Below are positions 38,365 through 39,544 of a DNA stretch of 64,000 bases, piece after piece. Under the pieces are notes generated by a model. The model made no database searches and was not told the DNA's origin. It saw only the letters and a program-made list of their open reading frames with translations. Both the position numbers and the translations under genes were made by a program. How positions within the stretch are numbered: the stretch's first letter is position 1; the number at the start of each line of letters is the position of its first letter. The DNA comes from Bacilli bacterium. GTDB lineage: Bacteria > Bacillota_I > Bacilli_A > RF39 > UBA660. The stretch is taken from NCBI GenBank assembly GCA_017442305.1, contig JAFRZY010000006.1, positions 41,538 to 105,537 of the forward strand. Reading direction: 5' to 3'.

Positions 38365-38500
38365 TTTTCTTTTCCTCCTTTATATAATAATCGGTTTAAT
38401 CCTAGTAAAGAATTGGAGTATTTCTAAACCACGAATAAACTTTCTATAACATTATATTATAAAATGTTTTAAAAATCAACCAAAAACTTGAGTTTACTTA

Positions 38501-38529
38501 TTGTGTAACATATAGCTATATAGTATAAT
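38501..38529 (+). promoter_or_regulatory. sigma-A-type promoter of the small-peptide transcript (TTGTGT-17-TATAAT)
   Basis: -35 38501-38506; -10 38524-38529; predicted TSS ~38536. Confidence 0.45.
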
Positions 38530-38537
38530 TTTTACTA

Positions 38538-38564
38538 GGAAATACTAACTGTTGAGTACTTGCC
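38538..38564 (+). ncRNA. 5' leader segment complementary to the transcript 3' end (fold-back element)
   Basis: GGAAATACTAACTGTTGAGTACTTGCC pairs with GGGTAAGTACTCAACG...GTTAAGTATTTCC at 38731-38768. GAGTACT/AGTACTC palindromic units at 38561-70, 38685-94 and 38737-48 allow alternative pairings. Confidence 0.45.
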
Positions 38565-38595
38565 AACTTTCTTCTAGAAAGGAGGCTTGATTTTT

Positions 38596-38685
38596 ATGAA
38601 GAAAAAAGATTTATTAATCTCATTTCTTATGTTAATTATCATTTTATTAATAGTCTCTTTAATGATTCTATGTATAAAAAAATAG
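38596..38685 (+). CDS. 29-aa hydrophobic peptide MKKKDLLISFLMLIIILLIVSLMILCIKK (candidate type I toxin)
   Basis: Not in the ORF track (too short). Strong RBS GGAGG 10 nt upstream of ATG. Single predicted TM helix with Lys at both ends. Own promoter and terminator. Confidence 0.4.
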   Translation: MKKKDLLISFLMLIIILLIVSLMILCIKK

Positions 38686-38730
38686 TACTCAATCTATCTT
38701 CGTAGATTAAAGTACTTTAACTATTTTTTA

Positions 38731-38780
38731 GGGTAAGTACTCAACGCTCGAAAAGTTAAGTATTTCCCTTTTTTATTTTA
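38731..38780 (+). terminator. 3' fold-back arm plus T-tract terminator of the small-peptide transcript
   Basis: GGGTAAGTACTCAACGCTCGAAAAGTTAAGTATTTCCC followed by TTTTTTATTTT. Confidence 0.45.
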
Positions 38781-38805
38781 TGCAAGTTTTCTTGCTTACA
38801 TACTA

Positions 38806-38834
38806 ATGTTATCACATTTCTTATAAATTGTCAA
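38806..38834 (-). promoter_or_regulatory. convergent minus-strand promoter (TTGACA-17-TAACAT), candidate antisense/antitoxin RNA promoter
   Basis: Perfect -35 TTGACA (plus 38829-38834) directly after the stop of the upstream minus-strand gene. Transcription would run antisense into the peptide transcript's 3' region. Confidence 0.35.
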
Positions 38835-38836
38835 AA

Positions 38837-39544
38837 TTACTCTATTCCTATTTCTTTCAACTTTTCCAAAACATAATAAATACATTCTTCTAAAATAATA
38901 TCTAATTTTTCTTTTGTAAACATTTTATAGTTATGTTTAATTATTTTTTCTTTAAAAGATAATTTATTAAAATCTATAAAATTTGTTTCTAAGTAATTTA
39001 ATCGTTGCATAACTAAATCTTTAGTATAAAATTTATTTTTTAAATATTTTACATTTTTAAATATTTCTTTATTGTTTTCTATTATTGGTAAATTGATATT
39101 CTTGAATAAATATCTACCATATAATTCAAAATCGCCATGTTTATATTTCTTTAGAATTTTATCTGTAGAATTAATTTTCTTTATACTTCCGTTTTTTAAT
39201 TTTACTCCCACTATATTATGATTTCTATCTTGAATCCAATAATTTGAACATACTAAATTATTATAGTAATTATCTACTAACAAATGACAATAGTATCCAA
39301 GTATTAAAGGATTTTTAATATCCTCTTTGTAATCGTCTAAAAATTTCTTTGTATCTATCATTAAGGCTTTGGGACATTTAGGAAATGGTAATTTCTCATT
39401 ATAATAATGCGTATTAAACCGATTAATTTTACAAATTTCATCAACATCAGGTAATAGATTACCAAAATAAAATGAATTTTTTTCTAATTTTAATTTATTA
39501 TTTAACTCTTTCGCAATAGTTAAATGAATACTCCAGCTAGCCAT
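38837..39544 (-). CDS. metal-dependent hydrolase, zinc-dependent phospholipase C-like fold (tentative)
   Basis: N-terminus MASWSIHLTIA resembles the W-x-x-H start of Zn-dependent PLC-like proteins, plus HLLVDNY. Weak. Confidence 0.3.
   Translation of the reverse strand: MASWSIHLTIAKELNNKLKLEKNSFYFGNLLPDVDEICKINRFNTHYYNEKLPFPKCPKALMIDTKKFLDDYKEDIKNPLILGYYCHLLVDNYYNNLVCSNYWIQDRNHNIVGVKLKNGSIKKINSTDKILKKYKHGDFELYGRYLFKNINLPIIENNKEIFKNVKYLKNKFYTKDLVMQRLNYLETNFIDFNKLSFKEKIIKHNYKMFTKEKLDIILEECIYYVLEKLKEIGIE

Follow-up and report, generated by a model that had tools for sequence, protein, structure and literature searches.

Sequence comparison and RNA modelling indicated that a gap next to rpsO in the 64,000-nucleotide (nt) stretch analysed here (the window; Bacilli bacterium, contig JAFRZY010000006.1) probably holds a chromosomal type I toxin-antitoxin (TA)-like module that is built like bsrG/SR4 and belongs to a family not yet described. 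This gap, put at about 470 base pairs (bp) in an earlier note on the same DNA, measured 472 bp (38365-38836). The candidate type I TA locus that the note had placed there gained support from about 100 related copies, covarying mRNA folds, a conserved antisense promoter and coding-type substitutions. Two generic features of a type I TA system were found at the level of sequence, namely a small hydrophobic open reading frame (ORF) that appears to be under selection and has its own promoter and Shine-Dalgarno (SD) sequence, and a putative antisense gene with extended complementarity. The three-state switch by which translation of the mRNA may be controlled is less certain.

Direct reading of the plus strand gave an ORF of 29 codons (MKKKDLLISFLMLIIILLIVSLMILCIKK, 38596-38685) preceded by GGAGG at 38581-38585, 10 nt ahead of the ATG, as had been noted before. 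The window peptide is predicted to span the membrane once, with a transmembrane (TM) helix at residues 6-27 between KKKD and KK. The promoter that had been proposed for this ORF, TTGTGT-17-TATAAT, was read at 38501-38529 on the plus strand (-35 TTGTGT at 38501-38506, 17-nt spacer, -10 TATAAT at 38524-38529), with a predicted transcription start site near 38536, and was kept across the family. Thus, among 91 copies, the -10 was TATAAT in 63, the spacer was 17 nt long in 79, an extended -10 TG was rare and the -35 was weak and of TTGTTT type. A promoter scanner did not call the plus-strand toxin promoter of the window, since the -35 of the latter matches TTGACA at only 3 of 6 positions; the reality of this putative promoter rests on its conservation in the family.

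Related copies were sought in one genome per species with a pattern composed of the inner arms of the long-range mRNA helix described below (GTTGAGTACTT, 150-180 nt, AAGTACTCAAC), which matched 76 loci in about 65 species-level metagenome-assembled genomes (MAGs) of gut Bacilli. The MAGs were labelled as uncultured members of Bacilli, Tenericutes or Erysipelotrichaceae, or as Coprobacillus sp. CAG:605, Clostridium sp. CAG:609, Firmicutes CAG:822, Ca. Onthousia and Ca. Scybalousia and came from guts of rabbit, goat, sheep, deer, mouse, chicken and human. A profile search of the pattern loci gave 112 matches, 98 of them full length and many in tandem arrays, for a family total of about 100 related copies of a module of about 340 bp. 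Identity to the window copy was 73-89% over approximately 38519-38794 and often extended to 38836. The peptide ORF and both complementary arms, conservation of which in related genomes had been suggested as a check, recurred together with the SD across these copies from gut Bacilli. Gene neighbourhood did not recur: only 1 of 75 loci had rpsO and pnp nearby (pnp at 70% protein identity), and no protein family was found at more than 5 of the 75. No blastn match was noted in plasmid and phage collections, and a full-text literature search with the peptide substring KKDLLISFL returned no paper.

An intact ORF with an SD was present in about 68 of the 76 loci (consensus MKKKDLLISFLILIIILLIVSLMILCIKK, which contains no Pro or Gly), while in a few the ORF was frameshifted or extended at the C-terminus. 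Among 57 distinct ORFs of one aligned subfamily (subfamily A), differences from the consensus at codon positions 1, 2 and 3 numbered 132, 39 and 156, second positions being 3-4 times less variable than first or third, and 149 synonymous changes were counted against 116 nonsynonymous changes despite the smaller number of synonymous sites. By this pattern of substitution, the peptide ORF is under coding (purifying) selection. Diverged paralogs of about 70% nucleotide identity encode other peptides at the same position, for example MKTKTFIIKVLKLIAIILLLSTLLVLAIKK, MKKRIFIIKFLQHIILILFFLLLIIAEIKK and MSKKDFLIFFLIIIILLLIVLLFVILK, which are 24-30 residues long and K/R-flanked with a single TM helix; the basic N-terminus and the C-terminal KK are retained, as is a hydrophobic core of about 22 residues. 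The suggestion that such a peptide would escape ORF-length cut-offs was borne out by a collection of about 15 billion proteins, from which the 29-residue peptides of subfamily A were absent while a 30-residue form was recorded; the latter, a member of a subfamily-B cluster (P0003; cluster P0001-P0007), was found on 921 contigs of up to 1.37 Mb under the name 'hypothetical protein'. Evidently, the family has been overlooked by annotation because the peptide lies under the 30-codon floor of gene calling.

The predicted toxin mRNA of about 244 nt runs from the transcription start site to the end of a T-tract (38536-38779, plus strand), as delimited by the fold and by the span of family homology. 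The minimum free energy (MFE) of RNA 38536-38780 was -67.9 kcal/mol compared with -37.8 +/- 4.5 kcal/mol for shuffled sequences (z = -6.77; 0 of 200 as good), and the MFE structure contained the 5'-3' duplex for which folding of this RNA had been put forward as the test, formed over 27 bp between 38538-38564 and 38732-38767. The 5' arm of this long-range helix (38538-38564), delimited by MFE and covariation, consists of an outer (38538-38550) and an inner (38551-38564) part and includes site 1 (TTGAGTACT, 38552-38560). The 3' arm and terminator (38731-38779) are made up of site 4 (AAGTACTCAAC, 38735-38745), a loop, GTTAAGTATTTCC and a T-tract at 38769-38779, in keeping with the T-tract that had been placed after the 3' segment; this region can either fold on itself into a terminator hairpin or pair with the 5' arm, and across the family its loop (38746-38752) was variable and its stems were conserved. 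Two hairpins lie between the arms. One, proximal to the SD (38567-38585), pairs CUUUCU (38567-38572) with AGAAAG (38576-38581) and abuts or overlaps GGAGG. The other (38684-38716), identified from fold and covariation, pairs site 2 (AGTACTCAA, 38684-38692) with site 3 (AGTACT, 38711-38716) and serves as a stem-loop of the mRNA 3' untranslated region (UTR) and, on the minus strand, as the stem of the predicted antisense terminator. Four AGTACT sites, of the 20 in the window, fall within these 300 nt, where 0.09 would be expected. The earlier note had correctly reported multiple AGTACT units but counted three, not the four that were found (at 38555, 38684, 38711 and 38736), and its coordinates for the first, 38561-38570, were about 6 nt off.

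The helices of the window MFE structure were tested on an alignment of 91 sequences. In RNAalifold runs on the raw alignment only the inner helix was retained, the outer arm being lost because indels misalign it, and the full structure was therefore tested explicitly. This main fold was paired in 91.8% of cells as opposed to 28-46% when one side was slid, and compensatory double changes were noted at 27 of its 46 pairs, a number reached by none of 500 shuffles. By helix, compensatory pairs amounted to 7 of 13 in the outer and 6 of 14 in the inner part of the 5'-3' helix (the inner being 98% paired), 4 of 5 in the SD-proximal hairpin and 10 of 13 in the hairpin of sites 2 and 3. Thus, the 5'-3' fold-back of the earlier note was present in the MFE structure and also covaried across the family. 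The mutually exclusive AGTACT pairings claimed in the same note were likewise supported by covariation of both alternative pairings, site 1-site 2 (97.9% paired) and site 3-site 4 (84.9%), with compensatory changes at 10 of 16 pairs. The palindrome AGUACU occupies all four sites in subfamily A, whereas in diverged paralogs sites 1 and 3 read GAGUGUC or GGGUGA and sites 2 and 4 read GACACUC or UCACCU, a concerted change at four sites that is what a two-state switch predicts. The numbers of GU and AC combinations were 140 and 36 in the long-range helix, 68 and 20 in the SD hairpin and 50 and 38 in the hairpin of sites 2 and 3. The asymmetry in the first two indicates that they function in plus-strand RNA, and the balance in the third is expected if that hairpin serves both strands. 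Judged from the alignment, all of the mRNA helices are under selection.

Accessibility of the SD was estimated with a thermodynamic model as the free energy required to unpair it in each of the 91 copies. In an mRNA prefix cut off immediately after the stop codon, pairing of sites 1 and 2 formed in 98% of copies and the median cost of opening the SD was 9.05 kcal/mol. In mRNA that included site 4, or was full length, site 1-site 4 and site 2-site 3 pairings formed in 99-100% of copies and the median cost fell to 4.3-4.4 kcal/mol. With the 3' UTR unavailable, as in a duplex with antisense RNA, the 5' arm was free and the median cost was 6.9 kcal/mol, above that of the full-length mRNA in 84 of 91 copies. 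The earlier proposal that the fold-back silences full-length mRNA, in the manner of the fbi structure of hok and of AapA mRNAs, was not supported by these predicted values, since the modelled SD was least accessible in nascent and most accessible in full-length mRNA. The 5' arm ends in GCC (GCCUCC in many copies), for which GG(G/U) of the 3' arm and GGC (GGAGGC) of the SD region are alternative partners; the SD-proximal hairpin lengthens to GCC...GGC once the 5' arm is free, and a perfect anti-SD, GCCUCC...GGAGGC, is present in many family copies. Because the GCC of the 5' arm pairs with either the 3' arm or the SD, the fold-back would be the state that relieves the anti-SD and not a hok-type lock.

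The convergent antisense promoter that had been proposed on the minus strand was found by promoter scan at 38834-38806 (-35 TTGACA at 38834-38829, 17-nt spacer, extended -10 TG and -10 TAACAT at 38811-38806), and its hexamers, TG and spacing were conserved in the family while the spacer sequence drifted freely. Among 92 copies the -35 was TTGnnA (TTGACA in 30), the spacer was 17 nt in 83, TGn was present in 87 and the -10 was TATTAT, TATGAT or TATAAT; the mean promoter score was 11.2 compared with 8.7 +/- 0.7 for shuffles. The antisense promoter is predicted to be stronger than the toxin promoter, as the latter has a near-perfect -10 but a weak -35 and rarely TG. From promoter, terminator and fold, the predicted antisense RNA is about 125 nt long (38799-38676, minus strand) and has three stem-loops, a folding energy of -30.1 kcal/mol (z = -4.64) and full complementarity to the mRNA 3' UTR and to the last three codons and stop. 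Its 5' stem-loop, GCAAG-AAAA-CUUGC (38781-38794, minus strand), lies past the mRNA end, in a conserved stretch just beyond the mRNA T-tract that the mRNA does not explain and that forms a minus-strand hairpin. The family consensus of this stem-loop is CAAG-GAAA-CUUG, with a GAAA-type loop, and it covaries in diverged copies (GAAG/CUUC, GAGG/CCUC). At the other end, in a feature that the earlier note had not mentioned, U7 follows a minus-strand hairpin (38716-38684); this U-run is complementary to 38676-38682 in codons 28 and 29 (two Lys codons), so that the predicted antisense terminator coincides exactly with the ORF end. The corresponding A7 run was nearly invariant across copies. On this sequence evidence, the promoter, 5' hairpin and terminator of the antisense unit are under selection.

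In the mechanism that we propose, a promoter with a weak -35 would produce the mRNA (about 244 nt) of a peptide of 29 residues with one TM helix between Lys residues, presumed to be a membrane toxin, and a stronger convergent promoter (TTGACA and extended -10) would produce an antisense RNA of about 125 nt against the whole 3' UTR, with a U-run that overlaps the last codons. Four short sites would then give the mRNA two mutually exclusive folds. In nascent mRNA, site 1 would pair with site 2 just past the stop codon and the 5' GCC would close an extended SD hairpin, so that co-transcriptional translation would be blocked. Once sites 3 and 4 were transcribed, refolding would give the hairpin of sites 2 and 3 together with the 27-bp 5'-3' helix (site 1-site 4 and the outer arm); the GCC would thereby be drawn off and the SD only partly occluded, making this the translatable form. 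Antisense RNA bound to the 3' UTR would displace the 5' arm, allowing the SD hairpin to extend again and turning translation off, and the long mRNA-antisense duplex would presumably be cut by RNase III. We infer that both RNAs are made, that folding follows this order, that decay proceeds through RNase III and that the peptide is toxic.

Models predicted that the regulatory logic of the module matches that of bsrG/SR4 and not that of hok. In bsrG/SR4, which was studied by probing and genetics, the toxin mRNA is about 250-300 nt long and its nucleotides 1-33 pair with the 3' part in a long helix, P1 (PMC3834814). SR4 is described as a convergent antisense RNA with a promoter stronger than that of bsrG, complementary to the bsrG 3' end, the binding of which makes the bsrG 5' end single-stranded and lengthens the SD helix from 4 to 8 bp, with decay that depends on RNase III (PMC3834814). 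In the models this architecture was reproduced by the 5'-3' helix, the 3'-side antisense RNA and the rise in SD cost from 4.4 to 6.9 kcal/mol; the peptides also share one TM helix and a Lys-rich C-terminus. The window module differs from bsrG/SR4 in its shorter peptide (29 as opposed to 38 residues), in the lack of a PF16935 match to the peptide and of an Rfam match to either RNA, in an antisense RNA that barely enters the ORF and in its hosts, which are uncultured low-GC gut Bacilli. In addition, a four-site, two-fold switch, in which a helix of sites 1 and 2 would enclose the entire ORF in nascent RNA, was not met in the available part of PMC3834814.

Resemblances to other type I systems were partial. 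Like the module, hok/Sok has a long-range 5'-3' helix in the toxin mRNA, exclusive alternative pairings and metastable co-transcriptional folds, but hok mRNA is locked by its fold-back and Sok targets the 5' (mok) region once the 3' end has been trimmed, whereas in the module the antisense RNA lies over the 3' UTR and the predicted effect of the fold-back is to open, not close, the SD. In aapA3, metastable structures that sequester the SD form co-transcriptionally in the toxin mRNA (PMC6733600), and the early site 1-site 2 fold is predicted from modelling to correspond to these. The aapA/IsoA systems of Helicobacter pylori also resemble the module in a long-distance interaction of the 5' and 3' regions and in the toxin, which has about 30 residues and a basic C-terminus; they differ in that IsoA overlaps the 5' UTR and ORF (PMC8594479), aapA mRNA is activated by 3' processing and the sequences are unrelated. 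In Gram-positive type I families the antisense RNA is placed on the 3' side (PMC8594479), an organisation that the module shares. Among these, txpA/RatA and sprG/SprF resemble the module in having convergent RNAs that overlap at their 3' ends and in being chromosomal and often multi-copy, but have longer toxins of other families, with no hidden Markov model (HMM) or Rfam match here. Fst/RNAII (par; Lpt, PepA1) likewise has a hydrophobic toxin of 29-33 residues, convergent RNAs and a 5' structure that limits translation; in contrast, the peptides of the window family lack the APxxxG motif (PMC8309996), and interaction through 5' direct repeats outside the overlap, as in the Fst RNAs, is not seen in the module.

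Searches of family libraries agreed with these differences. Toxins of the BsrE-G-H group belong to the Pfam family Hol_Tox (PF16935). Neither the window peptide nor four family variants matched any Pfam or NCBIfam entry at E<=10, including Hol_Tox, to which BsrG and TxpA controls matched at 1.8e-8 and 1.8e-7. The Fst/Ldr models NF033608 and PF13955 gave no match either, while Fst and PepA1 controls matched at 1e-8 and 5e-16, and the peptide had no Pfam match to Hok_Gef and no family in PHROGs. Thus, the likeness of the peptide to Fst, TxpA and BsrG that had been suggested held in the generic sense of one TM helix and a Lys tail and did not extend to their HMMs. A cmscan of Rfam over 38200-39000 on both strands (E<=10) returned only noise and a sub-threshold match to the ribosomal S15 leader, and thus none of the toxin or antitoxin RNA families (SR4, RatA, RNAII, Sok and others). 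The latter (38308-38418, minus strand; 33 bits compared with a gathering score of 39.5, E = 1e-5) covers sequence ahead of rpsO and runs into the gene.

Variation among copies was evident from individual loci. On two contigs that encode an identical rpsO protein and represent a diverged strain (L002 and L004), the ORF remained in frame despite several amino acid changes and upstream indels, and the antisense -35, spacing and TG were retained. In the same contigs (2428-3000), the promoter and the N-terminal half of the peptide (MKSKDILISTLLII...) differed from the window at many positions, the 3' half of the ORF and the whole 3' UTR were about 100% identical to it, and about 100 bp of extra sequence lay between the module and the gene next to it. 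Such a mosaic is suggestive of recombination, or of gene conversion, among copies. The 3' UTRs of four loci (L014, L027, L070 at 197-455 and L012) carried an insertion of 15-20 nt that duplicates GATTAAGTAC and forms a fifth AGTAC-type site. Weak profile matches at L066 (5562-5314) and L047 (5619-5883) were found to be further diverged full copies, one such copy with another type of peptide (MTKREFSQFIIILLLFLVVIILLLK, 25 residues), and the family is therefore broader than the three aligned subfamilies. Two pattern matches lacked a peptide ORF. One, in a MAG labelled Bacteroidota (L059), also lacked any profile match and is probably a chance match or a binning contaminant; the other (L008, 693-874) is on a contig that holds degraded copies. 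About nine truncated copies retained only the antisense side, from terminator to promoter, and had no toxin ORF, whereas no copy retained only the toxin side, an asymmetry expected if an unguarded toxin gene is lethal.

The window is AT-rich (GC content 27.6%), and the genes around the module are on the minus strand: pnp (35865-38045), rpsO (38095-38364) and, ending at 38837, a gene for a weakly Zn-phospholipase-C-like protein. The promoter of rpsO (TTGATT-17-TATAAT, 38479-38451, minus strand) is back to back with the predicted toxin promoter. In the interval from the stop codon (38837) of the minus-strand gene upstream to the antisense promoter, no terminator was found, and for this reason the module may double as an operon terminator or insulator. 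Read-through of the gene string 41245-38837 would enter the antisense RNA and end at its terminator before the rpsO promoter. On a metagenome contig otherwise identical to the window (L003, 3320-5498), pnp was called as two ORFs (381 and 274 residues), likely as a result of a frameshift or an assembly error. Over the whole window, the sole Rfam families to reach the gathering score were three tRNA genes, at 6449-6521, 13298-13370 and 22847-22930 (minus strand).

Other explanations of the locus were weighed against the same data. Regulation of a type I TA system as in hok or AapA, with an inert fold-back, release of active mRNA by 3' processing and subsequent capture by antisense RNA, would agree with a fold-back that is real, very stable and covarying, with an SD that in full-length mRNA still costs about 4 kcal/mol to open, and with 3' trimming by PNPase or RNase R, described as common for such RNAs (PMC3834814). 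This explanation is unlikely, however, as the complementarity of the antisense RNA is to the same 3' region that would be lost on processing and not, as for Sok and IsoA, to the 5' or SD region, and as removal or blocking of the 3' arm made the SD less accessible in 84 of the 91 copies, with which the models of truncated prefixes agree; a hok-like lock was disfavoured on these accessibility models. Purifying selection on the peptide would equally be expected if ordinary cis-antisense control acted on a non-toxic small membrane protein, for instance an accessory subunit or a regulator; benign examples are many among small TM proteins, and toxicity is presumed here. Such a role nevertheless seems improbable for a module that is multi-copy, tandem and non-syntenic with no recurrent partner gene, that has frameshifted copies and remnants of the antisense side only, and in which elaborate covarying layers appear to block translation, all of which are typical of toxins and unexpected of a housekeeping micro-protein. 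Judged from the copies at hand, multiplication, tandem arrangement, lack of synteny and occasional decay are behaviour typical of toxin modules.

That the module is a non-coding repeat, such as an element like a miniature inverted-repeat transposable element (MITE) or a bidirectional terminator/insulator cassette, in which the ORF is incidental, is very improbable. The unit of about 340 bp is multi-copy, has inverted-repeat arms and occupies varied intergenic sites, and in the window no other terminator-like structures separate the minus-strand operon upstream from the promoter of rpsO; but about 90% of copies retain the ORF together with its SD and start codon, second codon positions are constrained, the ORF has the same length and character in paralogs of about 70% nucleotide identity, and two conserved promoters face each other. 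A MITE was rejected because neither ungapped stacks of the flanks nor BLAST end-points revealed sharp transposon-like ends or terminal duplications, and the coding signal also argues against it.

Several points weigh against the type I TA reading or the switch proposed for it. The peptide has no homology to any proven toxin family in the libraries searched, and blastn, tblastn, nhmmer and profile nhmmer found no paralog in the 64-kb window, where the module is single copy. A terminator scanner called neither the mRNA nor the antisense terminator, both of which are AU-rich. Conservation of the inner arms is by construction in most copies, since the scan pattern fixes both of them; the covariation signal comes mainly from about 14 diverged neighbouring paralogs that were not selected by the pattern; and the percentage paired is inflated because the structure tested was that of the window itself. 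The costs of opening the SD are predictions for equilibrium, and even the 'open' state retains a substantial cost, near 4 kcal/mol. With these points taken into account, we lean, by a modest degree, towards a fuller reading of the locus as an unrecognised type I TA family under the 30-residue floor of gene calling, in small AT-rich genomes of uncultured gut Bacilli, with a covariation-supported four-site switch (a co-transcriptional lock by sites 1 and 2, a translatable closed circle through site 1-site 4 and site 2-site 3 pairing, and a re-lock by the antitoxin) and bidirectional terminators for its neighbours.

Type I TA systems are probably under-detected because searches begin from known families (PMC12390103; PMC8594479). 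The present family was found from raw sequence, and its approximately 100 natural variants provide nucleotide-level covariation for two mRNA folds and for an antisense unit. New type I families are to be expected; what is unusual here is the rich natural covariation and the little-studied clade. Annotation pipelines miss the whole family, which the profile built here could annotate. To our knowledge, re-sequestration of the SD induced by an antitoxin is known as a mechanism from one system, bsrG/SR4, and the family would thus offer a compact natural test of its generality. The candidate modules would also extend type I TA systems to the poorly known, uncultured gut Bacilli of reduced genome.

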